This document shows positions 1,891 through 52,271 of a stretch of 64,000 nucleotides of DNA, piece after piece. The notes under the pieces were generated by a model that searched no databases, was not told where the DNA came from, and was given only the letters and a program-made list of their open reading frames with translations. Position 1 is the first letter of the stretch. Every line of letters begins with the position of its first letter. Position numbers and translations under genes: made by a program. Origin of the DNA: an uncultured Actinomycetes bacterium (GTDB lineage: Bacteria > Actinomycetota > Thermoleophilia > UBA2241); the NCBI GenBank assembly GCA_963833555.1, contig CAWHYB010000004.1, positions 131,844 to 195,843 on the forward strand, read 5' to 3'.

Positions 1891-1949
1891 CGGCCTCGTG
1901 ATCGGCCCGCAGGCGTGCCTGCTGTGCACCATCTCTACCGCCACGGAGT

Positions 1950-2874: not shown

Positions 2875-2875
2875 G

Positions 2876-13641: not shown

Positions 13642-15243
<1,602 letters not shown>

Positions 15244-16776: not shown

Positions 16777-16833
16777 GCCGACCGGCTCGTGTCGGCCGGC
16801 GCCGCGGGCTTTGCGCCGGGCCGACAGTATCGA

Positions 16834-16872
16834 GCCCGTGCGGGCGACGGCTCCGCCGTCGCCCGCACGGGC
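16834..16872 (+). terminator. Strong stem-loop terminator after nuoN
   Basis: GCCCGTGCGGGCGACGGC, loop tcc, GCCGTCGCCCGCACGGGC; this is an 18-bp perfect stem about 58 nt after the nuoN stop. Confidence 0.6.
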
Positions 16873-16891
16873 ATGAGTTCCGTTCGCGGGG

Positions 16892-16897
16892 TACAAT
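16892..16897 (+). promoter_or_regulatory. Candidate -10 box TACAAT upstream of the YmdB-like gene
   Basis: gggGTACAATaccgcc lies 52 nt upstream of ATG 16950 and directly after the nuoN terminator. Confidence 0.3.
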
Positions 16898-16949
16898 ACC
16901 GCCACCTGCGGGCTGCGGGCGCGTGAGTACGAGGGGGTCAAGCCGCACA

Positions 16950-17731: not shown

Positions 17732-17838
17732 TGCCGATGCTAGCCGGAAACAGTGTTGGCGGAGACCCGCACCCGGGTAGGCTGGCGCAATCATCCGCGC
17801 ATGCGGGCGACCCGCCGGACGAGGGGGTCCTGAAGGCT

Positions 17839-19380: not shown

Positions 19381-20429
19381 GTGGGTCAGCTGGGCCCCGG
19401 ACCGGGGCGGCAACGAGAGAGCGGAGGGGGCGTGGCCGACGGGGAGCCGACACGTCGCCGGATCGTCGTGACCGGCGCGGCCGGCTTCGTCGGCTCGCAC
19501 CTGGTCGACCGGCTGCTGGCGGACGGGTGCGAGGTTGTGGGCGTCGATTCGTTCGAAGACTACTACCCGCGTCGCTGGAAGGAGACCAATCTCGAAGCGG
19601 CCCGGTCGTCCGACCGGTTCACGCTGGTCGAAGACAACCTGCTGGCCCTGGCGCTCGGAAGAGGCCGACGGAGGCGGTCCGGACGGTCTCGCCCGGCTCT
19701 TCGAGGGCGCGAACTGCGTCGTGCACCTCGCCGCCCAGGCCGGCGTCCGCTCCAGCTGGGGCAGGAGCTTTCGCATCTACACCGAGAACAACGTGCTCGC
19801 CACGCAGCTCGTCCTCGAGACCTGCCGCGAGCTCGGTCGTGCCCAAGCTGGTCTACGCTTCGTCGTCGTCGGTCTATGGCGACACCGATCAGCTCCCCAT
19901 GCGCGAGGACGCCAACTGCCGGCCGGTGTCGCCGTATGGGGTCACGAAGCTGGCCGGCGAGCAGCTCTGCCGCCTTTACTGGCGCAATCACGGCGTCCCG
20001 GCGGTCTCCCTCCGCTTCTTCACGGTCTACGGTCCACGCCAGCGTCCCGACATGGCCTTCCACATCTTCCTGCGGGCGCTGTTCGAGGGCCGTCCGCTCG
20101 AGATCTACGGCGAGGGCAACCAGACCCGCGACTTCACCTTCGTGAGCGACATCGTCGACGGCATCGTGCTGGCGATGCACGGTCGTGACGGCGCCGTCTA
20201 CAACCTCGGCGGTGGCTCGCGAGTCACCCTGCTCGAGGCCATCGAGACGCTCGAGAGCGCGAGCGGGTGCAGGGCGCAGGTCAAAGGCGAGAGCGTGCAG
20301 GCCGGCGACGTCAAGCACACCTGGGCCGACCTCTCGCTGGCCACCGACGAGCTCGGCTACGCGCCGCAGGTACGACTCGACGAGGGTCTGCGGCGCGAAG
20401 CCGAGTGGCTACGGGAGCTGTCGGTCTGA
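19381..20429 (+). pseudogene. NAD-dependent epimerase/dehydratase (UDP-sugar/uronate 4-epimerase-like SDR), two +1 frameshifts
   Basis: RRIVVTGAAGFVGSHLVDRLLADGCEVVGVDSF; CVVHLAAQAGVRSSW; KLVYASSSSVYGD...VSPYGVTKLAGEQL...LRFFTVYGPRQRPDMA. Confidence 0.85.
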
Positions 20430-22193: not shown

Positions 22194-22440
22194 TCAGCCT
22201 CCGATTGAGAGCCGCGGTATTCTTGCCCCGCCTCGACGGCGAGGTCAAGTGCGGCGTGCTTCTCGGCCAGTGCTCAGCCCGGACTCCGGACGTTCGTGGC
22301 GGCCCGATAACCGCGCGACCGGCACTACGGCCAATCAGACTGTCCCGCGCGTCGTGTCAGGTATCAAGCCGCCGCACGCCGTTGGCGTGGCCCCCGCGAC
22401 GCTTCTCGAGGCAAGCGGCAAGGGTCGCATCGAGCGGGAC

Positions 22441-23760
22441 TCACTCCCGGCGGCGCTTGACCTTGGCCAGCTCGTGACGGAGCTCCTGTCTGACGCCAGT
22501 CGAGAGCTCGCGGAGGGCGGGTGCGGGGTCGGCGAAGCTGACCACAGCGTCGACCCGCACGTTACGCAGCCCCGCGACGCAGGTCTCGAGACTCATCTGG
22601 CGGCGCACCAGCTCGAGCAGGCTGTCCCACGATTCGCGCGGCAGGTCGAGCCACCGTACGCCATCGGTCTGCCGGCCGACCTCGACCGGCCGGCCCAGGG
22701 CGTCCATGTAGGCGATCCACGAGAGGTTGACGCCCGCGGCGGTCGCCAGCGCGTGGTGCAGCCAGTGTCGGGCGTTGACCTCCATGAGCTTCAGCCGCCC
22801 GTCACGAGGGTCGCGCTTGAACTCGGTGCCGGAGACGCCGTGGAACGAGAGCTCGTTGAGCAGGCGCATGCTGACCTCGGCGACCTCGTCGACCCACAGG
22901 CTTTCGGCTATCCGCGATTCGCCCCACGACCGCGGGTGCTGCCGCACCTTCCGCGAGACGAACATCCCGAGCGGCCGTGAGGCTGCGTCCTGATAGGCGC
23001 CGAAGGTGTAGAAGTCCTGGTCGTCGCCCGGGATGACCTCCTGGAACATCAGCGGGCCGCAGACCTGGGCCTTCTCGTAGGCGGCGCCGACGTCGTCGGC
23101 CGTCGGCGCCAGCACCACCTTGACCCCGAATCGGCGGCGCATCTCCTGATGGCGGAGCGGCTTGAACAACGCCGGGAACGGCACCTCGGCGACGGCTCGC
23201 TCCAGATCATCGGGACCGTGCACAAAGGCAGTCTTCGGCGTGTCGACGCCCGCATCCCAGGCCGCCTGCATCTGCAGCTCTTTGTCGGCGAGGCGCTGCA
23301 TCACCGCCCAGCGCGCCAGCGGGATGATGTAGTAGCGCTCGAGGCGTTCGGCGTGCCGCGAGATCATCCAGACATGGTCGTCGAAGCCGGGGAAGAGGAC
23401 CGCCCGCTGCGGCAGGGCGGCGCCCAGCCGCTCGAGGTCCTCGATGAGGGCTTCTTCGTCGTAGCGGGGGTCGTGGCACGTCAGCGGGATCGCGTAGCGC
23501 GAGGCGAGGCCGATCGAGTTCGCCTCGCTGTCCATGGCGATCATCGGCACGCCGAGGCGGCCGAGGTCGCGCAGGACGCCGAGCCCGATGCCCGTTGAGA
23601 CGGGCACGACGACTGCGGGCGGGGTCACCGCCATGCGGCGCTGGACGTCGGGGTCACGGATCGATTCCAGCGACGGAGAGGTCCGCGCCCGGTATCTGGT
23701 GATCCACGACATCGGCGGTATCCCTTCGCTCGAGATCAGACTCTGCCGACAGGCTAGCAT
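22441..23760 (-). CDS. ATP-grasp carboxylate-amine ligase (COG3919 / D-aspartate-ligase-like); start uncertain
   Basis: Intact 439-aa ORF. ...LGVPMIAMDSEANSIGLASRYA...DKELQMQAAWDAGVDTPKTAF...FPALFKPLRH...MFQEVIPGDDQDFYTFGAY...FHGVSGTEFKRDPRDGRLKLMEVNARHW. Confidence 0.75.
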   Translation of the reverse strand: MLACRQSLISSEGIPPMSWITRYRARTSPSLESIRDPDVQRRMAVTPPAVVVPVSTGIGLGVLRDLGRLGVPMIAMDSEANSIGLASRYAIPLTCHDPRYDEEALIEDLERLGAALPQRAVLFPGFDDHVWMISRHAERLERYYIIPLARWAVMQRLADKELQMQAAWDAGVDTPKTAFVHGPDDLERAVAEVPFPALFKPLRHQEMRRRFGVKVVLAPTADDVGAAYEKAQVCGPLMFQEVIPGDDQDFYTFGAYQDAASRPLGMFVSRKVRQHPRSWGESRIAESLWVDEVAEVSMRLLNELSFHGVSGTEFKRDPRDGRLKLMEVNARHWLHHALATAAGVNLSWIAYMDALGRPVEVGRQTDGVRWLDLPRESWDSLLELVRRQMSLETCVAGLRNVRVDAVVSFADPAPALRELSTGVRQELRHELAKVKRRRE

Positions 23761-23829
23761 GTCGCTCCGGGGTTGCGGGACAGGCTCGCCTCCCGAGACA
23801 ACACTTCTGGAGCCGTCGCCCTGACTCTA

Positions 23830-23848
23830 TCTCGGTCGACGACCGAGA
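23830..23848. promoter_or_regulatory. Perfect 19-bp palindrome in a divergent promoter region (candidate operator)
   Basis: TCTCGGTCGaCGACCGAGA lies between the minus-strand ATP-grasp start (23760) and the plus-strand acetyltransferase start (23971). No gene ends here, so a terminator role is unlikely. Confidence 0.3.
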
Positions 23849-23970
23849 GTCGCCTTGGGATGCCCCCCGTCTCGTCGCACTGCCCGGTACCCCCTCGTCG
23901 TGCGATACTGGCCCAATCTCCGGCGAGCGCCGGCGAGGCGAAGGGTCACGGCCGACAGGGGGGACGTCGA

Positions 23971-24512
23971 ATGGGATGGCTGAGCGACTTCAAGTGCGAC
24001 CTGCAACGGTACCTGGACGACGGGCTGACCCCCGGCCGGGCCCTCCTGACGCAGCAGGGCCTCTGGGCAAGCCTCGAATACCGGCTCGCCCGTGAGGGAC
24101 GCAAGCTCCCGCTGATGGGACCGGTCTTCGTCGCCTCGCAGAAGCTCGTCGAGACGGTGACCGGCATCTCGATCGGCCACGGGGCCACCATCGGACCGGG
24201 GCTGTGGATCACCCACTTCGGCGGCATCATCGTCCACGACACCGCCGTGCTCGGCGGCGGCTGCCATCTGTGCCAGGGCGTCACCTTCGGCCGGGGGTAC
24301 GGCAGCGGCGGCTACGGCGCGCCGGTGATCGGCGACGACGTCTACGTGGACCGAACGCCGCCGTGTTGGGCAGGATCACGGTCGGCGACGGCGTCCGCAT
24401 AGGCGCGAACAGCGTGGTGACCAGAGATGTGCCCAGCAACGCGGAGGTCTGGCCGGCCCCGGTCGTCGTGAGCCCCAGCGGCGATGGGTCGGACGAGGGC
24501 GCCACGACGTGA
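23971..24512 (+). pseudogene. Left-handed beta-helix (hexapeptide) O-acetyltransferase, serine-acetyltransferase-like; one frameshift near 24350
   Basis: MGWLSDFKCDLQRYLDDG...ISIGHGATIGPGLWITHFGGIIVHDTAVLGGGCHLCQGVTFG..APVIGDDVYV, then the shift, then GPNAAVLGRITVGDGVRIGANSVVTRDVP. Confidence 0.75.
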
Positions 24513-24538
24513 CGACGGGCCTCTCGGCCGCGACCCGA

Positions 24539-26254
24539 TCACTTGATCGGCTCCGAGAGGATCGTGGCGTCGTCGCGCAGGATCGTCGCCATGCGCGACG
24601 CGATGTACATGCGGTAGGCCAGGGCCCTGGTCTCGAGATGCGGGAGCGGGGCCGGGCGCACGGCGCGTACCAGCCGGCGCGGCACGACCGCTCTGACCCG
24701 CTTGCGCAGGCGTCGTTTGGCCTCGCTCAGGGGCCGCTCGAGGTCGGCGACGACGGCTGCGAGCGCCGCCGACGAGAACACCCGTCGCCCGTCGTCGGAC
24801 GAGAGTTCCGTCAGGAGCTCGCTCCGCACGGCCTCTCTGGCGAGAAACCGGTCGAGCGGCTCGTCGGCGCCCCGGACGGCGAACGGCACCTCGGGCACCA
24901 GCCGGTCCACCATGCGTTCGAACCCGTACCGCATGTGGCGCAACCGGTCGGGCAGCTCCGAGGCCGCCGTCACGACCGCGCGTGCGAAGAGCGGGTTGAC
25001 CACCTCCGCGTAGGCGCATTTGACTTCGTTGAAGGCGGCCATGCAAGCGGGCAGTTCGAACGTGTTGTAGATCCGATCGCGATAGTGGTCGAGCGTCTCG
25101 CCGTCGCCCATGAACAGTGCCTCCGGCGGGTGCTGGGGAGCGGGTGAGAGGGCGTGGATGAGCTCGCTCTCCGGATAATCGCTCACCAGCGTCATCTCGT
25201 GGACGATGCTGCGCGTCACGAAGTCGTTGATCGGCTCGAACGGGAAGCCCCAACCCGGCGAGTCGCCGCGGATGATGACGGAGATGCCGGCGTCGAAGAT
25301 GTGACGCCAGGCGTCGAAGCCGTCGGTGTAGCCGCTGAAGTCCTCGACCCGACCCTCGCCGGCTCTCAGAAACCGTGAGAAGCCGTCGCGCACCGACCGG
25401 TCGCCGGGGTCGAGCAGCAGGTACTCGTGACGCAGACCGAAGCGCTCCGCCAGCCTCCGCGCGATGGCGGCGTCGTTGTCCGGTTCATCCAGGGACTTCC
25501 CCAGCCCCCACGTGAGGCAGGTGATGGGCGCGCCGGCGTCGGCGAGCCCTGCGAGCAGCGATCTGCTGTCGTGCCCCCCCGAGAGGGTGAGGGCCGCCTG
25601 CGCGCCGTTCAGGCGGAGCGACGCGCAGGCGGCGAAGATGCTCTCTCGAAGGCGGACGAGCTGCTCCTCTTCTGGCAGCGCCTGGGGTACGTACCGGAGC
25701 TCGCTGGACGCGATGCTGAGCGACCAGCTGCGGCGGTCGAGGCGTAGACACGTGGCGGCCGGCACGCGCCGCAGGCGCTCGTCCCATCCGTTCTGCGGCC
25801 CGAGATTGCCGGCCGCCACCAGCCAGGACACGGCCTCGGCGCACGGCTCGTACGAGCCGAGCAGGGCGACCAGTGCCCGCTGCGAGGTCGAGGCGAAGAA
25901 GGTGTGGTCGGTGTGCAGATACCAGACGGTGCGCGACGCGAATACGTCGGTCACCAGCTCGACGCGATCGTCGTCGTGGCGCACGATGGCGAAGGTGCCA
26001 TCGGGAGGCGGCGAGTCGAGTGCGGACCAGTCGGCGTCCTCGAAGAGGACGCCGAGCAGGATGCCGCGATCGTCCGCCTGGACGCTGGCTACCGGGTTGA
26101 CGACCACGCGGGCGAATCCCGGTTCATCGTAGACGTGCGGAGGATGCGGCTCGATGTTGTCGGGTGCAAGATGTCGCGCGAGGGTCGTCAGTCTCGCGCC
26201 GTCCGTCGAAGCGCGCGACTGATCGCGGCGCACGATCAGGATGAAGCCCGCCAA
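24539..26254 (-). CDS. Asparagine-synthetase-family protein lacking the N-terminal catalytic Cys (second paralog)
   Basis: Intact 571-aa ORF. The TTG start is preceded by GAGGAGGG. The N-terminus is M-A-G-F-I-L-I-V. The PP-loop is ALTLSGGHDSRSLL. It is collinear with 20409..22193, for example FASTSQRALVALLGS versus IASTSQRAVVALLGS. Confidence 0.75.
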   Translation of the reverse strand: MAGFILIVRRDQSRASTDGARLTTLARHLAPDNIEPHPPHVYDEPGFARVVVNPVASVQADDRGILLGVLFEDADWSALDSPPPDGTFAIVRHDDDRVELVTDVFASRTVWYLHTDHTFFASTSQRALVALLGSYEPCAEAVSWLVAAGNLGPQNGWDERLRRVPAATCLRLDRRSWSLSIASSELRYVPQALPEEEQLVRLRESIFAACASLRLNGAQAALTLSGGHDSRSLLAGLADAGAPITCLTWGLGKSLDEPDNDAAIARRLAERFGLRHEYLLLDPGDRSVRDGFSRFLRAGEGRVEDFSGYTDGFDAWRHIFDAGISVIIRGDSPGWGFPFEPINDFVTRSIVHEMTLVSDYPESELIHALSPAPQHPPEALFMGDGETLDHYRDRIYNTFELPACMAAFNEVKCAYAEVVNPLFARAVVTAASELPDRLRHMRYGFERMVDRLVPEVPFAVRGADEPLDRFLAREAVRSELLTELSSDDGRRVFSSAALAAVVADLERPLSEAKRRLRKRVRAVVPRRLVRAVRPAPLPHLETRALAYRMYIASRMATILRDDATILSEPIK

Positions 26255-26328
26255 GGGACCCTCCTCAGGCTAGTTCGACACGGACTCGTTCGACCAGCGA
26301 CCCGGCCTTCCTTGCGGGATCACGATGG

Positions 26329-26727
26329 TCAGCCATCGTCGGTCGCCCTCGTCGGCCCTCGGCGGGGGTAGAAGGACGCGAGCAGCACCGGCGCCGCCAG
26401 TGCGAACGGCAGGACGAGCCACGCGAGATCGTGGTGGTGCCGCTCGACGGCCAGCCGGTAGACGATCGCCATGGCCGACAGCGCCGTGAACAGGATCAGC
26501 ACCTCAACCACGAGCCGCTGCCCCCAGGGGTCCCGGGCTGCGCGCAGGGCGCCGATCCCCATCGCGAACAACGCCGCGGCGAGGATCTTGCCCGAGGTCG
26601 TCGCCGCCAGGTCACCCGAACGTCCCAGGTCGAGTAGCAGCGCCAGCGCGATCGCCACGCTGCCGAGGAAGTAGACGACGAGCAGCACCCTGATGACCCC
26701 GAACCGGTCGGCGGTACCGATCGTCAT
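26329..26727 (-). CDS. Small integral membrane protein of unknown function (about 4 TM helices)
   Basis: 132 aa: VIRVLLVVYFLGSVAIALALLL..ILAAALFAMGIGAL..VVEVLILFTALSAMAIVY..WLVLPFALAAPVLLASF. Its 4-nt overlap with the upstream SGNH gene suggests translational coupling. Confidence 0.55.
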   Translation of the reverse strand: MTIGTADRFGVIRVLLVVYFLGSVAIALALLLDLGRSGDLAATTSGKILAAALFAMGIGALRAARDPWGQRLVVEVLILFTALSAMAIVYRLAVERHHHDLAWLVLPFALAAPVLLASFYPRRGPTRATDDG

Positions 26728-27821
26728 GGCACTCGTGGCGGCACCAGTCCCAGCTGGAGCAGCCTCGCGTAGAGCGCGCGCGCCACGACTGCATCACCGT
26801 ACGCGCTCCAGTGGCCGCCGTCGAAGCCCTCGAACTTGCGGTGGTTGGCCTCGTACGCCTGCAGGAAGACCGGTTGCAGGTCCAGGAAGTGCACGTTCGG
26901 GAATGGGCGCGCGGCCTCGAGCAGCGCCTCGTATTCGGGGCGCGGGTCCGGCGAGGAGCTACCCGCGTAGATCCTCGTGCGGTCCGTGTCGACCACGAAG
27001 ACGAACGACCGACCGGGATGCTCGGCGACCAGTCTCGCGACCATCCAGCGCGCCGCTCTCCTGACCAACGGCGACGGCGTCGCCGGCTCGGTCGGAGCCG
27101 CGCCCCCGGGGTTGAGGTTGACGTCTGCGACCACCGCGTTCTTCTGGCCCCAGGTGATGCCCAGGTTCTCCCGCACGTAGCGTACGATCGCGCTCTGCCG
27201 CAGCAGGCGGCTCTTCTTGCCGAAGACGTAGTGGACGGGCGGCCGCAACTCACGGAATCCGGACCCATCTGCGACTATCTGCCAGGCGTACGCTGTCTTC
27301 ACCCCGTTCTCCTGCAGACTGTCTGCTATGTCGTGCCAGTCGATGAAGATGACGTAGGTGTCGGGAGCGAAGTGCGTCCCCACGTAGCGCGACAAGGCCA
27401 CGTACTGCTCCAGGTACCAGCCGGAGCCGCCGAAGGCGTAGACGTCGACCTGCTGATCGGCCAGTGCATGCAGGTCGACGTCGACATGTTGATTCACATT
27501 GACCGAGATCGCCTGGATGTAGGAGTCGCCCAGGATCGCGATGCGTGGCTTGTCGCCGGCACTCGGCGGCGCATAGTCGAACGGGCTGTTCCAGCCAGCC
27601 TTGTTGATGTGCCAAGTGGTCGGATGAAGGCCAAGCCGCCCGTGAGTGGCCACCCCCGATGCGACCCACGTTGGATCGAATCTGAAGATCATGCCGCCGG
27701 TGCTCATGTAGTTGGCGGGCAGCATGGTCGCCGGCACCACGGTGCGGAAGAAGACTTCGGCTACCACTGCCAGAATCACGATGAAGAGCGCGCAACGGGC
27801 GACGAACTTGACCATCGGCAT
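26724..27821 (-). CDS. SGNH/DltD/AlgJ-like membrane-anchored acyl-transfer protein (partner of the MBOAT)
   Basis: I prefer the ATG at 27821 (TGATG overlap with the MBOAT stop) over the longer ORF-track start at 27968. MPMVKFVARCALFIVILAVVAEVFF is a TM anchor, and ...PRIAILGDSYIQAI is a GDS-type motif. Confidence 0.6.
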   Translation of the reverse strand: MPMVKFVARCALFIVILAVVAEVFFRTVVPATMLPANYMSTGGMIFRFDPTWVASGVATHGRLGLHPTTWHINKAGWNSPFDYAPPSAGDKPRIAILGDSYIQAISVNVNQHVDVDLHALADQQVDVYAFGGSGWYLEQYVALSRYVGTHFAPDTYVIFIDWHDIADSLQENGVKTAYAWQIVADGSGFRELRPPVHYVFGKKSRLLRQSAIVRYVRENLGITWGQKNAVVADVNLNPGGAAPTEPATPSPLVRRAARWMVARLVAEHPGRSFVFVVDTDRTRIYAGSSSPDPRPEYEALLEAARPFPNVHFLDLQPVFLQAYEANHRKFEGFDGGHWSAYGDAVVARALYARLLQLGLVPPRVP

Positions 27822-29257
27822 CAGAACTGGACGTAGACGAACGGCCGTGCGCCGTGATTCCCGAGGACTAGCACGGCAAGGAGAATGGCGCAGTAGGCCG
27901 CCCAGCGAGCCGCGACCGGCAGGCGCGAGACGGCCCGGAGAGCGTACGTCTGCTCCCGCTGGAGCCATTCGACGAGCAGCAGGGCCGCACAGAGAGCGAG
28001 GTAGGGCAGATAACTGGTGTCGAAGCCGCCACGTGGGCCCGTGACGAACCGTGCGATGTAGCCAGCCGCCTGTGCCAGCGAGTCGGCCCTGAAGAACACC
28101 CAGGCCAAGATCGCCAGGAGGAACGTGCCCAGCACGGCTGCCGCCTCACGAGGGCTTGGCAGCAGACGGCCGTGTGCCACCGTGTCGCGCGGCGTCTTGT
28201 GCCCAAGCAGGATCCCCGGGACCTGGTAGAGGCCGTTCAGAAGGCCCCACACGATGAACGTCCAGTTCGCCCCGTGCCAGATGCCGATGATCAGGAAGCT
28301 GGCGAGGACGTTGAAGATACGCCGCGGCGTCTTGACCCTGCTGCCGCCCAGCGGGATGTAGACGTAGTCGCGGATCCAGAATGAGAGGGACATGTGCCAC
28401 CGTCGCCAGAACTCGGCGGTGCTGCGTGAGAAGTACGGGTTGGCGAAGTTCAGCGGCAGCTCCAGCCCGAACAACTTGCCGATGCCGATGGCCATGTCGG
28501 AGTAGCCCGAGAAGTCCGCATAGAGCTGGACGGCGAAGCAGACCGCCGCCACGAACAGGTTGATGCTCGACATGGTCTGGTAGGTGGCGAACGCGTGATT
28601 GACGAGCGGGGCGAGAGTGTCAGCGACCAGCACCTTCTTGGTGAAGCCCCAGAGCACCTGGCGCAATCCATCACGGGAACGGGCGTCGTCGAAAAGGCGC
28701 GTCGTCTCGTACTGAGGCAGCAGCAGCCTGGCCCTGCCGATTGGGCCGGCGGTCAACTGCGCGAAGAAGCTCGCAAAGGCGAGGTAGGCGAGGACATCGC
28801 GCGTCGCATGCATGTGCCGGCGGTAGATGTCGAGTGGGTAGGTCAGCATCTGGAACGTGTAGAAGCTGAGTCCCAGCGGCAGCAGGATCCGGAGGGCATA
28901 GGTCGGCGCGCCCATGCCGAGGCCGTTGAGCAGCGACGTCATTGAATCCAAGAAGAAGTTGGCGTATTTGAAGTAGCCGAGGATGCCGAGGGCGAGGACC
29001 AGGGTGGCCACCAGGACAGTCTTGCGCAGCCGCGGATCGTCGCTGCGCTCCAGGATCTGTCCGGACAGGTAGCCGATGACTGACACGGCCACGAGCAGCG
29101 CCAGGAGTCGCCAGTCCCAGTAGGCGTAGAAGGCATAGCTGGCCAGGATGAGCAGCAGGTTCTGGGCTGGCGCGCCGCGGCGGAGCTTGCCGACCAGCCA
29201 GTAGGCCACGAAGACGATCGGAAGAAAGACGACAAACGCGAACGAGACGAACTGCAT
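27821..29257 (-). CDS. MBOAT-family membrane O-acyltransferase (AlgI/DltB-like)
   Basis: Intact, polytopic 478 aa. FANPYFSRSTAEFWRRWHMSLSFWIRDYVYIPLGGSR..IFNVLASFLIIGIWHGANW contains the MBOAT His motif. Confidence 0.88.
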   Translation of the reverse strand: MQFVSFAFVVFLPIVFVAYWLVGKLRRGAPAQNLLLILASYAFYAYWDWRLLALLVAVSVIGYLSGQILERSDDPRLRKTVLVATLVLALGILGYFKYANFFLDSMTSLLNGLGMGAPTYALRILLPLGLSFYTFQMLTYPLDIYRRHMHATRDVLAYLAFASFFAQLTAGPIGRARLLLPQYETTRLFDDARSRDGLRQVLWGFTKKVLVADTLAPLVNHAFATYQTMSSINLFVAAVCFAVQLYADFSGYSDMAIGIGKLFGLELPLNFANPYFSRSTAEFWRRWHMSLSFWIRDYVYIPLGGSRVKTPRRIFNVLASFLIIGIWHGANWTFIVWGLLNGLYQVPGILLGHKTPRDTVAHGRLLPSPREAAAVLGTFLLAILAWVFFRADSLAQAAGYIARFVTGPRGGFDTSYLPYLALCAALLLVEWLQREQTYALRAVSRLPVAARWAAYCAILLAVLVLGNHGARPFVYVQF

Positions 29258-29386
29258 CAGTCAGCGGCCTCCTGCCGGTTCGTTCTCCAGAACATGCCTA
29301 TCGGGCCGTTCGTCAGCAGAAGTGCCGGTTCCTCCCTGAAGGTCGCAGCTTCTGCGACACCGATGCCTCCCAACGATTGGACTGTG

Positions 29387-40431: not shown

Positions 40432-41756
40432 GCACCGCGATCAGCATCTCCGGGCTCGGCAAGCGGTACATGATCGGCGCCGCGCAGCAGCGCGCGGGGA
40501 CCCTGCGCGACGCGATCACGAACGCCGCCACCGCGCCCGTCCGCCGGCTGCGTCACGCCGGCTCGTCGACGGGCCATGTGAGCGAGCTCTGGGCTCTGCG
40601 GGACGTGAGCTTCGACGTCGACGCCGGTCAGGTGATCGGCGTCATCGGCCGCAACGGCGCCGGCAAGAGCACCCTGCTCAAGATCCTCTCGCGCATCACC
40701 GAGCCGACGACGGGGCGCATCGCGCTCCACGGCCGCGTCGGCAGCCTGCTCGAGGTGGGCACCGGGTTCCACCAGGAGCTGAGCGGCCGCGAGAACATCT
40801 ACCTCAACGGCGCCATCCTGGGCATGACGCGGGCGGAGATCGGGCGCAAGTTCGACGACATCGTCGAGTTCTCCGAGATCGCCGAGTTCCTCGACACCCC
40901 GGTCAAGCGCTACTCCACCGGCATGTACGTGCGCCTCGCCTTCGCCGTCGCCGCCCACCTCGAGCCCGAGATCCTGCTCGTCGACGAGGTGCTGTCGGTC
41001 GGCGACCTCGGCTTCCAGCGCAAGTGCCTCGGGCAGATGGAGCAGATCGCCGGCTCGGGACGCACCGTCGTCTTCGTGAGCCACAACATGGGCGCCGTGC
41101 GCAGCCTGTGCACGCGCGTCGTCGAGATCGAGGCAGGCCACCTGGTCGCCGACGGCCCGTCCGACGAGATCGTGAACGAGCTACATCGCCAAGCAGCTGG
41201 CGACGTCGGGGTCGGTGCTCCATCTGCCGCGACCGCTGGGCAAGCCCGATGAGCTGCTCATCACTGCCGTCCGCGTGCGTCGATGAAGACGGCAGGACCG
41301 AGGGGCCGTTCCACAGCAGCCAGCCCGTCGCCGTCGAGATCGACATCGAGGTCGCGCGCGCAGAACGCCGCCTACCAGGTCGGCTTCGACCTGCTGTCTG
41401 GCGACGGTCTCGTCCTGCGCAGTTGGCACACGGACGGGCCGCCCGACGACTGGCCGCCGCTCAGCGTGGGCCGCAGCACGCTGCGATGCGTGATTCCCGC
41501 CGGCATGCTCAACGAGGGGAGCTACGCCGTGGCACCGCGGGCCGATGTGTACCGGAGCCACTGGATCGTCAACGGCGACGAGGCTGTCTGGTTCGACGTC
41601 GTGAAGGACCACCTCGAGTCGCCGTTCTCCTGGGTCAGGCACCCTGGTCCGATTTCACCTCTGCTGGACTGGCGCATGAGTGACGGTGGCGAGGAGGTTG
41701 CCGAGCCCAGGGTTGCGACTGGCGAAGACGTGACACCATCAACTCCACCCGTCTAA
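40428..41756 (+). pseudogene. wzt: Polysaccharide ABC exporter ATP-binding protein with a C-terminal substrate-binding-type extension (Wzt/TagH-like); frameshifts near 41190 and 41340
   Basis: ATGA overlap with the permease. IGVIGRNGAGKSTLLKIL (Walker A), YSTGMYVRLAFAVA (signature), EILLVDEVLSVGD (Walker B). About 190 aa follow after the NBD (ORF 41283..41756). Confidence 0.85.
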
Positions 41757-41760
41757 GGCC

Positions 41761-43167
41761 ATGGGCCTTCTGCGCCTAGCCCTGCCGGCCGCGCTCGCCC
41801 TGTGGTTCATATGGAAGGCGAGGGGCAACCCTCTCTTCCTCCTCGGAATCCCAGTGCTCATGGTTATGCGAGGCTCGGTCTTCTTCCAGAACGTCAAGCC
41901 GTTTTGGATGCCGGGGCGATTCGCGCCCGTCGCCCTGCTCATGGGCTGGCTCGTGCTCGTGTGGCTGGTGACCATTGTGCGTCGATGGCAGTTCGCGGGC
42001 GATCCATCGCTAGGCGTGTTTGGTGCTAGATGCGTCCTTCCTGAAGAGCTGCCTCTGGCCGGCATAGCCCTTCTGATCATCGTCCACACACTGGCATCAT
42101 TCACGGCGAGCAGGGACCTCGTGGACGCATTCTCTCTCGCGGCCGCCACGTCCTACTTCGTCCTTGGCTACCTCCTGGTCAGGGGCATCGTGAGCCGCGC
42201 GAGTCGTGTCGAGACCCAGGAGTTTCTCGCCGCAGTGGTCGTTGTCAACACGCTGGCGTGTGCGCTGTTTGTGCTGCACCAGGGGCTACACCTGCCGATC
42301 TATCTAGGCGCGGTAAACGCAAACTACGTCTACGCCGGGCAGAACGTCGGCCGGGCCACGACGTACGCTCCTGTCTTCAACCTGCTTGCACTCGGCTTCG
42401 TTCTCGCGAAGCGGCGCTGGAGTCCTGCGTGGATCGTGGTGCTGGCGATAACCCTGGCGGCGATCATGGTTTCCCTGACCCGGACCATGTTCATTGCCGC
42501 GCTGGTCGGGCTCGTGATTGCCATTTTCGCGCGCGAGCTGGCACGCCCCGATTTCGGACGAATGGCGCGCCGAACAGGGGCCACTATCCTGGCCTTCGCC
42601 GCGGTGGTCGTTGCGTTCAGTCGTGTCGCGCCCGTCTACTGGGCATTTCTGCTGAAGCGGCTCAGCGAGTTCACTGCCGGCGGCGGCGAAGTCCAGAACT
42701 GGCGTGTGCGAATGATCCACTGGGATGCGGTACAGCGCGTGGTGGCCCATACCGACCTGACTTTCGGCCTCGGCTTTCCACACCCGGCGTCCAACGCCGT
42801 CGATGCTCACGTTTGGCTGTGGTCCTCGGACATGGCTTGGCTGCCCATAATGTATCGGTTCGGCTACGTGGGCCTGGTGCTCTTCGCGCTGTTGATCGCG
42901 GGGTTCATGGTACGTGCCCTGTCGCTCTCCCGCAGACCGCCGGAGCTGCGACGCGAGCTCGCGCTCGCCTACTTCATCGTCCTCGCGCTAACCGTCATCA
43001 TGGGCTTCCAGACCTGGGTCTTCATGGACCCGGACGTCGCCCCGATGGGGTTCTGGATCTTCGCGTTGATTGCCGCTGAGGCTCTGCGGCCTTCTGAGGA
43101 ACTCGAGCCCGCTGTCGCTCCGGGGCGAGCGCTCGACGCCGTGGGTCGTCAACCTCGCTTGTCGTGA
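41761..43167 (+). CDS. O-antigen ligase/polymerase-family membrane protein (Wzy_C/WaaL-like)
   Basis: Intact, polytopic 468 aa (at least 10 TM). MVSLTRTMFIAALVGLVIAIFARE...RMIHWDAVQRVVAHTDLTFGLGFPHPAS is the typical periplasmic loop with H/R residues. Local GC is lower (about 60% on a 60-nt spot count). Confidence 0.65.
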   Translation: MGLLRLALPAALALWFIWKARGNPLFLLGIPVLMVMRGSVFFQNVKPFWMPGRFAPVALLMGWLVLVWLVTIVRRWQFAGDPSLGVFGARCVLPEELPLAGIALLIIVHTLASFTASRDLVDAFSLAAATSYFVLGYLLVRGIVSRASRVETQEFLAAVVVVNTLACALFVLHQGLHLPIYLGAVNANYVYAGQNVGRATTYAPVFNLLALGFVLAKRRWSPAWIVVLAITLAAIMVSLTRTMFIAALVGLVIAIFARELARPDFGRMARRTGATILAFAAVVVAFSRVAPVYWAFLLKRLSEFTAGGGEVQNWRVRMIHWDAVQRVVAHTDLTFGLGFPHPASNAVDAHVWLWSSDMAWLPIMYRFGYVGLVLFALLIAGFMVRALSLSRRPPELRRELALAYFIVLALTVIMGFQTWVFMDPDVAPMGFWIFALIAAEALRPSEELEPAVAPGRALDAVGRQPRLS

Positions 43168-44388: not shown

Positions 44389-45525
44389 ATGAGGGTCCTC
44401 ACAGTGCTGGGCACGCGACCCGAGGTGGTCCGCCTCAGCCGTGTCATCGCGAAGCTCGACGAGTCCTGCGACCACGTTCTCGTACACACCGGGCAGAACT
44501 ACGACAGCAGTCTGAAGGACGTCTTCTTCGAGGAGCTCGGTATGCGTGCGCCCGACCGGGAGCTCGGCATCAGGGGCGACAGCTTCGGTGAGCAGGTCGG
44601 CCGCCTGTTCGCCGCGATAGACGACGTTCTGCGCGATGAGCGCCCCGATGGGCTGCTCGTGCTCGGCGACACCAACAGCGGCCTGTGCGCCATCGTTGCT
44701 GCGCGCCTTGGCATCCCCGTCTTCCACATGGAGGCTGGCAATCGGTGCTACGACGATCGGGTGCCCGAGGAAGTCAATCGTCGCGTCATCGACCACTCCA
44801 GCACCGTGCTGATGCCGTACACGCACGCGCAGCAAGGAGAACCTGCTGCGCGAGGGCGTCGCCCGGCGAACGCATCTACGTGACCGGCAACCCCATCAAC
44901 GAGGTCCTCGAACACTACGCGCCAGCAGATCGACGCCGCGCCCGTCTTCGAGCGGCTCGGCGTCGAGCCGCAGCGCTACTTCCTGGTCACCATGCACCGC
45001 GCCGAGAACGTCGACGTCGACGAGCGCCTGCGGTCGCTGACGGTCGCGCTCGAGCGGGTGAGCCGCGAGTACGACCTGCCGGTGATCTGCAGCCTGCACC
45101 CGCGCACGCAGCAGAAGATGCGACAGTTCGGGGTCGAGGCGAGCGACGAGCGCGTCCGTTTCCTCGAGCCGCTCGGCCTGTTCGACTTCGTCGCCCTGGA
45201 GCGCGCAGCGTTCTGCGTGCTCTCCGACAGCGGGACGGTGCAGGAGGAGTGCTGCCTGTTCCGCGTGCCCACGGTGACGATGCGCGACGTGACCGAGCGA
45301 CCGGAGACGGTCGAGTGCGGCAGCAACATGCTGGCCGGCGTCGACCCCGAGACGGTGCTGCGCTGCGTGCGCGCCGTCACCGCCCTGCCGCAGGCCTGGT
45401 CGCCGCCGCCCGAGTACCTTGCCCACGACGTGTCGAGCACGGTGGTCAAGATCGTGCTCGGCTATCTCTGGGACGGGAGTCGACAGTTGGCACGCCACCG
45501 GTCCCAACGTCGTCATCGCGGGTGA
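44389..45525 (+). pseudogene. wecB: UDP-N-acetylglucosamine 2-epimerase (second WecB-type copy), three +1 frameshifts at 44830-44960
   Basis: MRVLTVLGTRPEVVRLSRVIAKL..VHTGQNYD..FHMEAGNRCYDDRVPEEVNRRVIDH; SKENLLREGV; ERIYVTGNPINEVL; FLVTMHRAENVD...SDSGTVQEECCLFRVPTVTMRDVTERPE. Confidence 0.88.
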
Positions 45526-47893: not shown

Positions 47894-48070
47894 ACAACGC
47901 GTGCCGGAGGCGTCCAACGCCGGCGGCGACCCTTGTCTGCTACCATTGCGTCAGCGCGGGCGGTCCAACAGCAGATCGTCGGCTCCCGCGCCGAGTGTGC
48001 AAGTCCGACATCGGCCGGCCCAGGCGGGCGGCGGGCACGCGGGCGGACGTCTCAGGCGGAGGAGGGTCCA

Positions 48071-48802
48071 ATGGAATCTTCGACAACCGTCCCCAACCGG
48101 CCGCAGTCGTCGGAGATCAACCCCGGCCCGGGATTCCGCATCAAGACGACCTTCGAGCGGCCGGCGGTCGAGCTCATGCACAAGCTCGGCGAGTTCCCGT
48201 CGCCCGAGATCTCGGACCAGCTCAACCGGTTATACGCCGTGACGCCGGACATCCGGTGCCTCACGGGGCCGGGTCACCGGCTGGTCGGACCGGCCTGTAC
48301 CGTGAAGGTGTATCCGGGCGACAACCTGATGGTCCACAAGTCGCTCGACATCGCCCAGCCGGGCGACGTGGTGGTCGTCGACGCCGGAGCATCGCGCATG
48401 AACGCGGCCCTCGGCGACCTGATCTCGACCAAAGCCAGGCACCGCCAGATCGCCGGTTTCGTCGTCGACGGGTACGTGCGCGACCTTCCCGACATCCTGG
48501 AGCTCGACTTCCCGGTCTTCGCCCGCGGCACCACCTCGATCGGTCCCCTGCACCGGGGCCCGGGCGAGATCAACTACCCCATCTGCTGCGGCGGGGTCGT
48601 GGTGAACCCCGGCGACGTGGTCGTCGCCGACGCCTTCGGGGTCGTCATGGTCCCGCGCGACAACGCCGAGGACGTCCTCGAGCGCCTCGTCGCCACCAAG
48701 GCCAGGCTCGCCGACTATCTCGCGGGCGTGAAGAAGGGCGTGTTCTCGAACAAGTGGGTCGACGACCTGCTGGCCGCCGGCGACTGCCCCATCGAAGACT
48801 AG
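48071..48802 (+). CDS. RraA-family protein (4-hydroxy-4-methyl-2-oxoglutarate aldolase / oxaloacetate decarboxylase-like)
   Basis: I chose ATG 48071 (after GGAGGAGGG). GPACTVKVYPGDNLMVHKSLDIAQPGDVVVVDAGASRMNAALGDLISTKARHRQIAGFVVDGYVRD...PVFARGTTSIGP. Confidence 0.8.
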   Translation: MESSTTVPNRPQSSEINPGPGFRIKTTFERPAVELMHKLGEFPSPEISDQLNRLYAVTPDIRCLTGPGHRLVGPACTVKVYPGDNLMVHKSLDIAQPGDVVVVDAGASRMNAALGDLISTKARHRQIAGFVVDGYVRDLPDILELDFPVFARGTTSIGPLHRGPGEINYPICCGGVVVNPGDVVVADAFGVVMVPRDNAEDVLERLVATKARLADYLAGVKKGVFSNKWVDDLLAAGDCPIED

Positions 48803-48820
48803 GTCGCGGCCATTTCCCCG

Positions 48821-49930
48821 TTGGACACGCTGCTCGATCGGACGGTTCGCTCGCGCGCGCTCTGGCACAAGCTGGAGAAGCACCTGCCGAAGCGCACCCG
48901 CGCCCGCGGCGACGGGCGGCGGGAACCGGACTTCCACAGGACGGCCTGGGGAGATGCCGCCGCTGCCGAGGGCGTGGCGGTGACCGACATCGGAGGAGGG
49001 TTCTTCGAGATCCAGTGTCCGACGTCGGTCCTGCGTGTGTACAGGAACATCACCTCTCTCGACGACGCCGTCACGGCCGCCATCGCCGCCGACAAGCCGC
49101 TCGTCCACGAGCTGCTCGCCCGGCACGGCTTGCCAGTCCCGTCACATTGCGTGTGCGGCTACCGGGAGGTAGCGACCGCCTGGGCCTTCGTCGGCCGGCG
49201 GGACCGGCCGTGCGTCGTGAAGCCCGCCCACGGCACGGGCGGGGGCACCGGCATCACCATGGACGTCTCGACCAGGAAGCGGCTTGTGGCCGCGATGGGA
49301 CGCGCCGGCAGTTACTGCGAGAAGCTCGTCATCGAGGACCAGCTCGCCGGCGACAACTACCGTCTGCTCTACCTCGACGGCAGGCTGATCGACGCTCTGC
49401 TCAGGCGCCCGCCGCAGATCATCGGCGACGGGGTCTCCACGGTCAGGGAGCTGGTCGAGGCGCGGGAGCCCGGGGCCTCGGCGCCACGCCCGGGGCCCTG
49501 GGTGGCACGCGGCGCCGCATGGCGGTTCGGAGGCCTGCTGAGGGAGACCGGCCGCGGGCCGGACGACGTCCCCGCGGCCGGCGAGTCCGTCCGGCTGCGG
49601 CGGGTCGTCAACATGCACGACCGCCAGGACAACGAGTCGGTCACCGGCACCATCTCCGCCGCGGTGGTCGAAGCGGGCGCCCAGGCCGCCGCGGCCGTCG
49701 GCGTCCGTCTGGCGGGGGTCGACATCATCACGCCCGACCGCTCTGTCCCGCTCGCCGAGGCCGGGGGCGCGATCATCGAGGTCAACACCGGGCCGGGGTT
49801 GCACTACCACTACATGACGTCCGGCGAGCCCACCCCGGTCGCGTCGCTCATCCTGCGGCAGCTGTGTGAGACGGACGTCCGTCAGGGCCGGCCGACGAAG
49901 GCCCGGAGTGGGCGTGGACCGACCACCTGA
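48821..49930 (+). CDS. ATP-grasp ligase resembling the N-terminal ATP-grasp module of cyanophycin synthetase / RimK
   Basis: DKPLVHELLARHGLPVP...RPCVVKPAHGTGGGTGIT...VIEDQLAGDNYRLLYLDGRLIDALLRRPPQIIGDGVSTVRELVEA...VGVRLAGVDIITPD...AIIEVNTGPGLHYH. Confidence 0.7.
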   Translation: MDTLLDRTVRSRALWHKLEKHLPKRTRARGDGRREPDFHRTAWGDAAAAEGVAVTDIGGGFFEIQCPTSVLRVYRNITSLDDAVTAAIAADKPLVHELLARHGLPVPSHCVCGYREVATAWAFVGRRDRPCVVKPAHGTGGGTGITMDVSTRKRLVAAMGRAGSYCEKLVIEDQLAGDNYRLLYLDGRLIDALLRRPPQIIGDGVSTVRELVEAREPGASAPRPGPWVARGAAWRFGGLLRETGRGPDDVPAAGESVRLRRVVNMHDRQDNESVTGTISAAVVEAGAQAAAAVGVRLAGVDIITPDRSVPLAEAGGAIIEVNTGPGLHYHYMTSGEPTPVASLILRQLCETDVRQGRPTKARSGRGPTT

Positions 49931-49931
49931 C

Positions 49932-51167
49932 ATGGTCAACAGAGAGAACGGTCTGCCGCCGGCGATCCTCGTCGGCGCGAGTTCTGCCAACGCCGTCTCC
50001 GTCTCGCGGAGTCTCGGGAGACACGGCATCACGGTGTATCTGCTCTGCGGATCCAACGGCGAGTCGCGTCACTCGCGCTATGCCACCCGGCTGGACGGCG
50101 GCGAGACGCCCGACGAGTGGGCCCGCTTCCTGCTCGACGTCCGGTCCGACTGGCTGCGCGGCGCCGTCCTGTTGACCTGTTCAGACGACGCCATCGAGAT
50201 GACCATCAGACAGAGGGAGGCGCTGACCGAGAAGTACGTCCTCGACATCGCGGAGCCGTCGGCGCAGAGCTGCTTCCTCAACAAGCTGTGCACCTACGAG
50301 GCCGCCGTCGAGGCCGGCGTGCTCACCCCGCTGTTCTGGCGGGCCGGCAACCTTGCCGAGGTCGAGGCCCATCGCGACGAGTACGTCTACCCCCTGATGG
50401 TCAAGCCGCTGTTCTCTCACCGGTTCAAGAAGATCTTCTCCGGCAAGTACTTCCTGGCGCACGACTACGGGGACCTGGTCGACGCGTTCCAGAAGGTGCA
50501 TGCCGAGGGCGTCGAGGTGCTGCTGCTCGAGGAGATCCCGGGCGACGACGATCGCCTCTGCAGCATGTACACCTACATCGACGAGGAGGGCACGCCGCTC
50601 TTCGAGTTCACCAAACGCATCCTTCGCCGCCACCCTGAGCGGCAGGGGTTCGGCTGCTACCACATCACCGACTGGAATCCCGAGGTGTTCGAGACCGGCC
50701 TGCGGCTGATCCGGCACGTCGGCCATCGCGGCATCGGCAACGTCGAGTTCAAGAGGGACGTGCGCGACGGCAAGCTCAAGGTCATCGAGTGCAACATCCG
50801 CTTCACGGCGGCCACCGAGATCTTGGTGGCGAGCGGGTACGACCTGCCCTTGTTCGTCTACAGCCGCCTGACCGGCAGGCCGTTCCGGCCACTTCGCGAG
50901 GCGACCTACCGGCGCGGAGTACGGCTGTGGTTCCCGCTGGCCGACGCGCTCGAGTTCGTCGAGCTGCGTCGCCAGGGGAGGCTGACGACCGCCGTCTGGC
51001 TGCGCAGCGTGGCACACCCGCAGGCCCTGCCGTACTTCGCCTGGGACGACCCCCTGCCGTCTCTGGTGATCACGTGGCGGGTCGCGCGGCGCCTGTCGCG
51101 GTCGGGTGCGCGCCGCCTGGCCGAGAAGGCGCGCGCCACCGCGGAGCGACGGGCGCGCGCCGTCTGA
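49932..51167 (+). CDS. ATP-grasp carboxylate-amine ligase (COG3919-like; paralog of 22441..23760)
   Basis: I chose ATG 49932, directly after the upstream stop. NKLCTYEAAVEAGVLTP..YPLMVKPLFSHRF...LLLEEIPGDDDRLCSMYTYI...HRGIGNVEFKRDVRDGKLKVIECNIRF. Confidence 0.75.
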   Translation: MVNRENGLPPAILVGASSANAVSVSRSLGRHGITVYLLCGSNGESRHSRYATRLDGGETPDEWARFLLDVRSDWLRGAVLLTCSDDAIEMTIRQREALTEKYVLDIAEPSAQSCFLNKLCTYEAAVEAGVLTPLFWRAGNLAEVEAHRDEYVYPLMVKPLFSHRFKKIFSGKYFLAHDYGDLVDAFQKVHAEGVEVLLLEEIPGDDDRLCSMYTYIDEEGTPLFEFTKRILRRHPERQGFGCYHITDWNPEVFETGLRLIRHVGHRGIGNVEFKRDVRDGKLKVIECNIRFTAATEILVASGYDLPLFVYSRLTGRPFRPLREATYRRGVRLWFPLADALEFVELRRQGRLTTAVWLRSVAHPQALPYFAWDDPLPSLVITWRVARRLSRSGARRLAEKARATAERRARAV

Positions 51168-51215
51168 CGGGCGGCGCGCGTTTGATGGAGCCGACGGCGC
51201 CGGCGAGGAGGGCCG

Positions 51216-52271
51216 ATGTCTGAGGACGAGATTCAGGTCGATGCGGCGGTCCTGAAGGCGTACGTCGCGGCCCTGTACGGGCGGGTCGGCATGGCCGCCG
51301 CCGACGCCGAGTACTGCGCCGAGTGTCTCGTGCAGACCGAACTGTGGGGCAAGAGCTCGCACGGCGTCATGCGCGTCCCTCACTACCTGGCCCGCATCAG
51401 GAGTGGTGCGGTCAACCCGCGTCCCGCGACGCGGCTCCTGCGCGGCAACGGGGCCTTCCAGGTGATGGACGGCGACAACGGCCAGGGTTTTCTCGTCGGT
51501 CGGGACGCCATGTCGCACGCGGTCGCACTGGCCGGCGAGCACGGCGCGGGCGTGGTGGGCGTCGTGCACAGCAGCCACTTCGGTGCGGCGGGGTTGTACG
51601 CGCGCCTGGCGGTCGACCGGGGCATGGCCGGCATCGTCATGACGAACACGGCGCCCAAGGTGGTCGCCCCCGGCGGCACCAGGCCGATCACCGGCAGCAA
51701 TCCCATCGCGATCGGGGTGCCGAGCTACGGGGAGTTTCCGTTTCTCCTCGACCTGTCCCTGTCCACCGTCGCCGGCGGCAAGCTCCTGCTCGCTCGCGAG
51801 AGGGGCGAGAAGATCCCCCTCGGCTGGGCGGTGGACGAGGACGGCGAGCCGACCGACGACCCGGCCACGGCTTTCGCCGGCTACTGGCTCCCCGCCGGAG
51901 GCGTCAAGGGTCTCGGCCTGTCCTACGCCGTCGACGTGCTCTGCGGCGTGATCACCGGGGCCGCCTTTGGGCTGGGCATGCACAGCCAATATGGACAGGC
52001 GGACGAGCCCAGTGGCACGGGCCACCTGATGATCGCCCTGCGTCTCGAGGCCATCATCGACCGCGACGAGCTCAGAGAGAGGATGGGTGCGTTCATCGCC
52101 GCCATTAAGACATCGCCGCTGCGCGACGACGCCGCCGAGATGTTGGTGCCGGGAGAGTCGGCCGACCGCTGCCGGCGGGCGCGCCTACGCGGGGGCATCC
52201 CGCTGCCCGCCGGTCTCCACCGCGAGCTGCTCGCCCTGGGGAGGGAGCTCGCGGTCGACGCTCGTCTGTGA
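51216..52271 (+). CDS. Ldh_2-family NAD(P)H oxidoreductase (malate/L-lactate/sulfolactate dehydrogenase type 2)
   Basis: WGKSSHGVMRVPHYLARIRSGAVNP...GDNGQGFLVG...VVHSSHFGAAGLYA...TNTAPKVVAPGGTRPITGSNPIAIGVP...STVAGGKLLLA. Confidence 0.82.
   Translation: MSEDEIQVDAAVLKAYVAALYGRVGMAAADAEYCAECLVQTELWGKSSHGVMRVPHYLARIRSGAVNPRPATRLLRGNGAFQVMDGDNGQGFLVGRDAMSHAVALAGEHGAGVVGVVHSSHFGAAGLYARLAVDRGMAGIVMTNTAPKVVAPGGTRPITGSNPIAIGVPSYGEFPFLLDLSLSTVAGGKLLLARERGEKIPLGWAVDEDGEPTDDPATAFAGYWLPAGGVKGLGLSYAVDVLCGVITGAAFGLGMHSQYGQADEPSGTGHLMIALRLEAIIDRDELRERMGAFIAAIKTSPLRDDAAEMLVPGESADRCRRARLRGGIPLPAGLHRELLALGRELAVDARL

Follow-up and report, generated by a model that had tools for sequence, protein, structure and literature searches.

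What role might two ATP-grasp ligases, an aldolase homologue and a 2-oxo-acid reductase homologue have in the middle of a polysaccharide gene cluster? The question is raised by a 64,000-nucleotide stretch of DNA, hereafter the window, from an uncultured Actinomycetes bacterium of the class Thermoleophilia (assembly GCA_963833555.1, contig CAWHYB010000004.1, positions 131,844 to 195,843 of the forward strand), in which an RraA-like gene, two different ligase genes (here called AG1 and AG2) and an Ldh_2-family gene occupy positions 48071-52271 of the plus strand. The four genes represent one lineage's version of a conserved four-role module that recurs in the polysaccharide clusters of many phyla, and we consider it moderately probable, judging from the enzyme families involved, that the module is an accessory glycan-tailoring cassette, by which a small acidic side group would be made and linked to a sugar polymer. 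The four open reading frames (ORFs) encode an RraA-like class II (metal-dependent) pyruvate aldolase/oxaloacetate decarboxylase homologue (48071-48802; 243 aa), a stand-alone ATP-grasp ligase, AG1 (48821-49930; 369 aa), a COG3919-type three-domain ATP-grasp ligase, AG2 (49932-51167; 411 aa, identical to P0001 of a public protein collection), and an Ldh_2-family NAD(P)H oxidoreductase (51216-52271; 351 aa). They are intact, co-oriented and tightly packed among glycosyltransferase genes, as a first-pass annotation of the window had described, with intergenic gaps of 18, 1 and 48 nt and a GC content at third codon positions (GC3) of 0.88-0.91 in all four. Reading of the 177-nt intergenic region before the cassette (47894-48070, plus strand) revealed a strong Shine-Dalgarno sequence, GGAGGAGGG, 5 nt 5' of the RraA-like ATG at 48071; a consensus scan of this region gave no sigma-70-like promoter, and one inside the four-gene block gave no convincing promoter or terminator.

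We used an alignment of AG2 homologues (A1) as query, collected 80 loci from named genomes and scored their gene content by tblastn; 51 of the loci had enough flanking sequence. A gene group counted as a cassette if a reductase gene and genes of the RraA-like, AG1 and AG2 types lay within about 6 kb, for the most part in one orientation and in a polysaccharide locus, an arrangement that the window displays. Within 6 kb of AG2, an RraA gene was present in 41 of the 51 loci, AG1 in 40 and a reductase of any kind in 41 (a NAD_binding_2/DUF1932 dehydrogenase in 38, Ldh_2 in 4), and all four roles occurred together in 34, so that the grouping of these genes, which the first-pass annotation had made dependent on co-occurrence and synteny elsewhere, was borne out. 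The exact order RraA-AG1-AG2-Ldh_2 was found in the loci L015/L016, L021, L101 and L102, the glycan loci of which are otherwise different. Carriers span at least eight phyla and include Thermoleophilia, Planctomycetota, Acidobacteriota, Myxococcota, Pseudomonadota (Thiocapsa marina 5811, Kiloniellaceae, Alcaligenaceae), Pseudonocardia, Chloroflexota, Dormiibacterota and Spirochaetota. Polysaccharide genes (Bac_transf, GT4, Wzx-type Polysacc_synt, Wzz/BY-kinase, UDP-sugar dehydrogenase, NAD-epimerase and ABC transporter genes were counted) lay within 10 kb in 42 of the 48 loci of at least 15 kb, and direct tblastn placed a CE4 deacetylase within 10 kb in 19 of the 80 loci. In L019, the cassette is situated between an initiating transferase and GT4 genes, and here as well as in L017 the 1-nt gap between AG1 and AG2 is replaced by an overlap of 4 nt.

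The cassette is accessory: an AG2 orthologue (E ≤ 1e-60) was found in just 10 of the 201 genomes of the class, and a close AG1 in just three of the 25 genomes of the family. Its genes differ in how well they are conserved. RraA is the most conserved (88% identical to the window gene in L015 and 87% in L101 and L102); identity is 80% in L015 and 50-51% in L101/L102 for AG2 and 78% and 58% for Ldh_2, and AG1 stands out as the most divergent in L015 (53%, between flanking genes at 78-88%; 62-63% in L101/L102). A putative acid-making enzyme held constant while the ligases are exchanged would be expected if the ligases determined a variable acceptor or added residue.

The reductase role is filled in more than one way. 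The window's Ldh_2 protein matches PF02615 over its full length (E 3e-108; 362 bits, cut-off 38.8) and is a family member at Pfam level only; it scored 236 bits against a cut-off of 500 for the sulfolactate dehydrogenase ComC, 181 against 496 for the ureidoglycolate dehydrogenase AllD and 149 against 316 for DlgD. Its closest structures are 1VBI (5e-64), ComC 2X06 (1e-60) and 1V9N, with DpkA 1WTJ at just 8e-30; by sequence, its nearest solved relatives are therefore 2-oxo-acid reductases and not the imine reductase DpkA. It has the full-length Ldh_2 fold in common with ComC, MdhII and the Thermus type-2 malate/lactate dehydrogenase (2X06, 1VBI, 1V9N), but differs from ComC-type enzymes in its score and in that, in this cassette, an unrelated DUF1932 dehydrogenase can take its place. 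The exact window protein was not found in a public contig index; orthologues are present in the cassettes of L015, L021, L101, L102, L018/L024 and L029. Of the membership first proposed for the cassette, RraA, AG1 and AG2 therefore stand, whereas Ldh_2 is not a fixed member, being restricted to some Thermoleophilia; in most phyla the reductase is a NAD_binding_2/DUF1932 dehydrogenase instead. In the AG2 tree, all Ldh_2-type cassettes fall inside one actinobacterial/Thermoleophilia clade (18 rows; Shimodaira-Hasegawa-like approximate likelihood ratio test support, 99), in which Ldh_2 and DUF1932 cassettes interleave in such a way that at least three switches are required; the cassette of L072 carries both types. 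This alternation within a single well-supported clade points to non-orthologous displacement in one functional slot, i.e., one role filled by unrelated enzymes. The closest solved structures of the DUF1932 reductase are uncharacterised structural-genomics proteins, which therefore carry no information on the substrate of the reductase.

The RraA-like protein (PF03737, E 4.9e-47) belongs, by name, to a family that also comprises a regulator of RNase E. It scored well below the cut-offs for that regulator (NF006875, 83.6 bits against 136; TIGR02998, 44.8 against 241) and, at 243 aa compared with about 160 aa, has the N- and C-terminal extensions seen in aldolases. Its best solved structure is 3NOJ, the 4-hydroxy-4-methyl-2-oxoglutarate/4-carboxy-4-hydroxy-2-oxoadipate (HMG/CHA) aldolase (E 2e-30), and the active-site comparison with this enzyme, which the first-pass annotation had suggested, showed that the catalytic Asp102, Arg123 and Asp124 are all kept (GYVRDLPD and LGDLIS align with VRD and GD). 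Because these residues are retained and the regulator cut-offs are failed, the protein probably functions as a metal-dependent pyruvate aldolase or as a decarboxylase of the oxaloacetate type. Fold and catalytic residues are thus shared with the HMG/CHA aldolases/oxaloacetate decarboxylases LigK and GalC; however, these act in aromatic catabolism, whereas the RraA-like gene lies among biosynthetic glycan genes, and it missed the LigK/PcmE equivalog cut-offs (TIGR02798, 136.2 bits against 304.5; NF006731, 140.5 against 179). The closest NCBIfam entry is the unnamed PRK06201 subfamily (226.9 bits, cut-off 231).

AG1 carries the E-x-N motif of the Mg site (IEVN) and matches solved ATP-grasp domains, which places it in the ATP-grasp superfamily. 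As the first-pass annotation had noticed, it resembles a module of cyanophycin synthetase: it aligns with the G domain of this enzyme (NF010623, E 3e-49, only positions 199-475 of 871 of the profile; structure 7LGN, residues 186-476, E 4e-30). The ATP-grasp domain is likewise shared with GshAB (E 3e-32) and N-acetylglutaminylglutamine synthetase (TIGR03103, E 5e-38, far below the cut-off), the domain matches of AG1 to the three ranging from E 1e-18 to 4e-30, but AG1 differs from all of them in standing alone, with neither the N and M domains of cyanophycin synthetase nor a GshA or GNAT (GCN5-related N-acetyltransferase) domain, and it is far from every family cut-off. It probably activates a carboxylate and adds the amine of an amino acid.

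AG2 gave only weak Pfam matches (ATPgrasp_Ter, CPSase_L_D2). Residues E272, K274, E286, N288 and R290 are invariant across 23 homologues, and the AlphaFold model (predicted local distance difference test, 88) has a three-domain ATP-grasp fold, with biotin carboxylase, PurK and the L-amino-acid ligase 3VOT as nearest neighbours (template modelling score about 0.6); the invariant E286-x-N288-x-R290 and these fold matches together assign AG2 to the ATP-grasp superfamily and, in agreement with the first-pass annotation, it falls in the broad COG3919. The fold search returned generic ATP-grasp neighbours with no clue to the substrate, and no solved structure matched AG2 by sequence. A search of 1.84 billion representative proteins yielded AG2 matches (E ≤ 1e-30) in 468 protein clusters (50% identity), among them several kinds of fusion. 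AG1 and AG2 are joined in P0253, and in the reverse order in P0289 and probably also in P0291, P0338 and P0346, and because they are fused in both orders the two ligases are taken to work as a unit. P0248 and P0272 contain AG2 in tandem, and P0245, P0282 and P0284 combine it with a FemAB-like Acetyltransf_6 domain. The domain order GT4-AG2-AG2-GT4 of P0247, a metagenomic representative of 1589 aa, indicates a physical link between AG2 and glycosyltransferases in some organisms. In P0251, two alpha/beta-hydrolase domains are joined to AG2. A candidate fusion of AG2 to a PIG-L de-N-acetylase (P0331) was set aside as a faint hint, the PIG-L part being just under the Pfam cut-off and having no solved relative.

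Non-sugar substituents on surface glycans, such as amide-linked amino acids, hydroxy acids and opine-like groups, shape recognition by phages and by the immune system, and for most of them we know of no genes by which they are made. The synthesis of an oxo- or hydroxy-acid followed by its ligation is plausible for the cassette, given the retained catalytic residues and the domain fusions. In the pathway that we propose, the RraA-like enzyme would make or trim a small 2-oxo-(di)carboxylic acid, the oxo group of which would then be turned into a hydroxy group by the reductase (Ldh_2 here, the DUF1932 dehydrogenase elsewhere), although reduction of an imine would also be possible. AG2 would activate a carboxylate as an acyl phosphate and attach the acid, probably through an amide bond, to the repeat unit, at an amino sugar or a sugar acid; AG2 might be the core ligase, being kept even in minimal loci such as those of Thiocapsa and Singulisphaera. 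AG1, an optional and variable ligase of the amino-acid-adding type, might extend the side group with an amino acid or use a second carboxylate, and asparagine-synthetase-like enzymes, encoded right beside the cassette in L017 and 22 kb from it in the window, may amidate the carboxylates that remain. A surface polysaccharide would in this way acquire an acidic or peptide-like side chain that varies between strains.

Two known ATP-grasp systems come close to single steps of this scheme. Cj1438C, the ATP-grasp of the Campylobacter jejuni HS:2 capsule, amidates glucuronate, with serinol or ethanolamine as amine donors (PMC11800379; Riegert et al. 2022, cited there). Like AG2, this C-terminal TupA-like amidoligase domain of Cj1438 is a polysaccharide-locus ATP-grasp; it places an amide on a sugar of the repeat unit and, like AG2 in P0247, shares its polypeptide with a glycosyltransferase. 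It is, however, a single ligase without an aldolase or reductase partner and comes from a different ATP-grasp family; neither AG1 nor AG2 matched the TupA family in Pfam at E ≤ 0.01. Pyl, an ATP-grasp of the UDP-yelosamine pathway of Bacillus cereus, joins 2-oxoglutarate to a nucleotide amino sugar at the amine of the latter (Hwang et al. 2014, J Biol Chem 289:35620, as cited in PMC11257628). As far as it is described there, the operon includes an initiating transferase, and the acid is a 2-oxo-dicarboxylic acid of the kind handled by RraA-like and Ldh_2 enzymes; unlike the cassette, the pathway as cited takes a central metabolite directly, with no dedicated aldolase, reductase or second ligase. 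The cassette might thus be a further form of ATP-grasp-mediated glycan decoration. In literature searches that covered RraA, ATP-grasp, DUF1932, D-aspartate ligase and demethylmenaquinone methyltransferase, no account of it turned up, in line with the earlier remark that no characterised pathway is known with this combination; a preprint on Xanthobacter slime mentions an ATP-grasp unrelated to the cassette. Modular, widespread and clearly linked to glycan assembly, the cassette is a defined set of four enzymes through which a new glycan substituent, and the way it is made, could be sought; the alternating reductases and the fused ligases offer starting points for comparison, and three cultured carriers (Singulisphaera sp. 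Ch08, NZ_CP155447; Pseudonocardia sp. H11422; Thiocapsa marina 5811) make it testable.

The same genes could serve other ends. If the product were free and soluble, i.e., a pseudopeptide or a compatible solute such as N-acetylglutaminylglutamine amide, the cassette would merely tend to sit near glycan genes. The likeness of AG1 to the ATP-grasp of N-acetylglutaminylglutamine synthetase, the asparagine-synthetase-like genes that recur nearby as in the pathway to that amide, the L-amino-acid ligase 3VOT among the fold neighbours of AG2 and the six of 48 large loci that have no glycan gene cluster within 10 kb would all agree with this. We nevertheless regard it as unlikely, since the other 42 are glycan loci in which the cassette often lies co-directionally between the initiating transferase and the glycosyltransferases, AG2 occurs fused between two GT4 domains, and the cassette has no conserved companion in the form of an exporter or a GNAT dedicated to a soluble product. 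A role of the ligases in peptidoglycan, on stem peptides or cross-bridges, is suggested by the name 'D-aspartate ligase' given to AG2 homologues by the Joint Genome Institute (JGI), after which the comparison with the D-aspartate ligase of Enterococcus faecium (Aslfm, also of COG3919) comes to mind, and by the fusion of AG2 to the FemAB-like Acetyltransf_6, a family used in cross-bridge synthesis. The comparison with Aslfm is one of COG and JGI name; AG2 reaches no curated family cut-off. The cassette neighbourhoods contain no mur, fts or racemase genes (mur and racemase genes were absent from every locus examined) but Wzx/Wzy, ABC-2, Bac_transf and GT4 genes, and so patchy a distribution within the class is unlike that of a function in the wall core; we consider this role improbable.

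Polymerisation of amino acids by AG1 into a cyanophycin-like or RimK-like chain, an idea that the first-pass annotation had entertained as oligomerisation, draws on cyanophycin synthetases being the best AG1 matches. Yet the match is confined to the G domain (residues about 186-476 of CphA1), AG1 having neither an N domain nor a Mur-ligase-like M domain, the scores are 157-168 bits against cut-offs of 850-877 (168 against 877 at best), and the same domain also matches the non-polymerising GshAB and N-acetylglutaminylglutamine synthetase; the idea is accordingly left without support and seems very improbable to us. That the four genes are neighbours by chance, each serving a separate housekeeping or catabolic function such as LigK-type aromatic catabolism or type-2 malate dehydrogenase, is hardly credible: the family names alone would suggest it, but gene order is kept from phylum to phylum, the ligases show translational coupling and occur as fusions, no lig or pca genes lie nearby, and a second, distantly related RraA paralogue (C3, 36% identity) is encoded elsewhere in the genome. 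None of the four genes reaches the cut-off of a characterised family, and all NCBIfam equivalog scores are far below theirs, so that the close housekeeping orthologues by which the first-pass annotation would have been undone did not appear.

Several points weigh against glycan tailoring itself. Substrate, product, acceptor and every chemical step are read from family membership; the alternating unrelated reductases could reflect different chemistries instead of one role; and the FemAB-like fusions would agree no less well with a peptide than with a glycan-bound product. In some loci AG2 stands alone, or AG1 and AG2 occur with neither RraA nor reductase, and the ligases can therefore use ordinary metabolites. 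In the window, no sugar aminotransferase or deacetylase gene stands next to the cassette, and the assembly of the window is rich in indels. A bolder extension of the glycan-tailoring proposal, which we hold to be improbable, would have each ATP-grasp activate one carboxylate of a hydroxy-dicarboxylic acid made by the RraA-like enzyme and the reductase, giving a bis-amide bridge from an amino sugar to an amino acid or to a second glycan strand; with FemAB-like and asparagine-synthetase-like partners, Thermoleophilia, Planctomycetota, Acidobacteriota and other phyla could in this way build a wall polymer of 'glycopeptide' type that is cross-linkable and independent of peptidoglycan.

Around the cassette, the window (about 69% GC) is made up of one very large glycan locus, as judged from ORF lists, GC3 plots and family matches. 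It begins with nuo genes, a YmdB-like gene and an initiating sugar transferase (18.1-19.4 kb), continues with an NAD-epimerase gene and a block on the minus strand (20409-26269) composed of an AG2 paralogue (22441-23826; 31% identical to AG2) between two asparagine-synthetase-like genes, and then with membrane-bound O-acyltransferase (MBOAT) and SGNH genes, beta-helix proteins and epimerases, an ABC-2 transporter (39.4-41.3 kb) followed by two ORFs, and GT2, UDP-GlcNAc 2-epimerase and two GT4 genes immediately upstream of the cassette. Downstream of it are an NAD-epimerase, several GT1/GT4 genes and a Wzz/BY-kinase-like gene. The nuo-YmdB-Bac_transf anchor is shared with the relative L019, in which the cassette directly follows the transferase. 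In L017/L022 a block homologous to that at 20409-26269 directly abuts the RraA-AG1-AG2 cassette, divergently transcribed, and the block is thus probably allied with the cassette; the homologous block there (857-7920) also includes an AG1-like gene.

Several genes of the window look broken. Compared with their intact L019 orthologues, nuoL, nuoM, nuoN and the initiating transferase (12039-19375) are each in 3-6 pieces in different frames, with about one frame change per 300-400 bp; one upstream GT4 gene is split at about 47285 (its L015 homologue is intact, 398 aa), and the UDP-GlcNAc 2-epimerase gene at 44389-45525 has an in-frame stop at 44881-44883. The stretches 20.4-29.3 kb and 47.9-52.3 kb are without breaks. 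Among public sequencing runs, a single one contains the region, at thin coverage. Since core nuo genes show the same kind of damage, we read the breaks as sequencing artefacts, most likely for the main part indel errors of a long-read metagenome-assembled genome, and the contrast between an 'intact' cassette and 'broken' neighbours is therefore without biological meaning. The source genome has 2.49 Mb in 9 contigs and a completeness score of 51.6%, for which an indel-rich assembly would probably also account; related assemblies have Flye-style contig names and 'MFD' labels.

Two optional genes accompany the cassette in other organisms. A protein family of about 355 aa is present in 19 of the 80 AG2 loci, mostly of Planctomycetota and Acidobacteriota, and lies between AG1 and AG2 in 13; it had no Pfam or NCBIfam match, and its members (L036:10846-11919, L037:8865-9920 and others) show an HKDR...H pattern that recalls Fe(II)/2-oxoglutarate oxygenases. 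The other codes for a FemAB-like protein of the Acetyltransf_6 family, an assignment that Pfam confirmed in L068, and AG1-AG2 gaps of similar length occur in L086, L092, L096 and L100. Genes for an HpcH/HpaI-family aldolase and for SIS, 2-Hacid_dh_C and GFO_IDH_MocA proteins were seen beside a rearranged AG2/Ldh_2/AG1 set without RraA in L018/L024 (6158-9606) and in L023 (5044-5835), and this group may be a second acid-making module; we do not claim the aldolase as a replacement of RraA in L018/L024, as L023 has both.

Within the window, the two ORFs between the ABC transporter and GT2 (41283-41756, 157 aa, and 41761-43167, 468 aa; plus strand) have coding-type GC3, and neither Pfam nor NCBIfam gave a match for them. 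A second UDP-GlcNAc 2-epimerase gene (33842-34450) covers only positions 9-143 of 347 of the profile, and at the corresponding place in the close relative L015 the UDP-GlcNAc 2-epimerase is likewise just a 137-aa fragment. The MBOAT membrane O-acyltransferase gene adjoins that of the SGNH-domain protein (26724-29260, minus strand), forming an AlgI/DltB-like pair within the glycan locus; as called, the two ORFs overlap, and a frame error is a possible cause.

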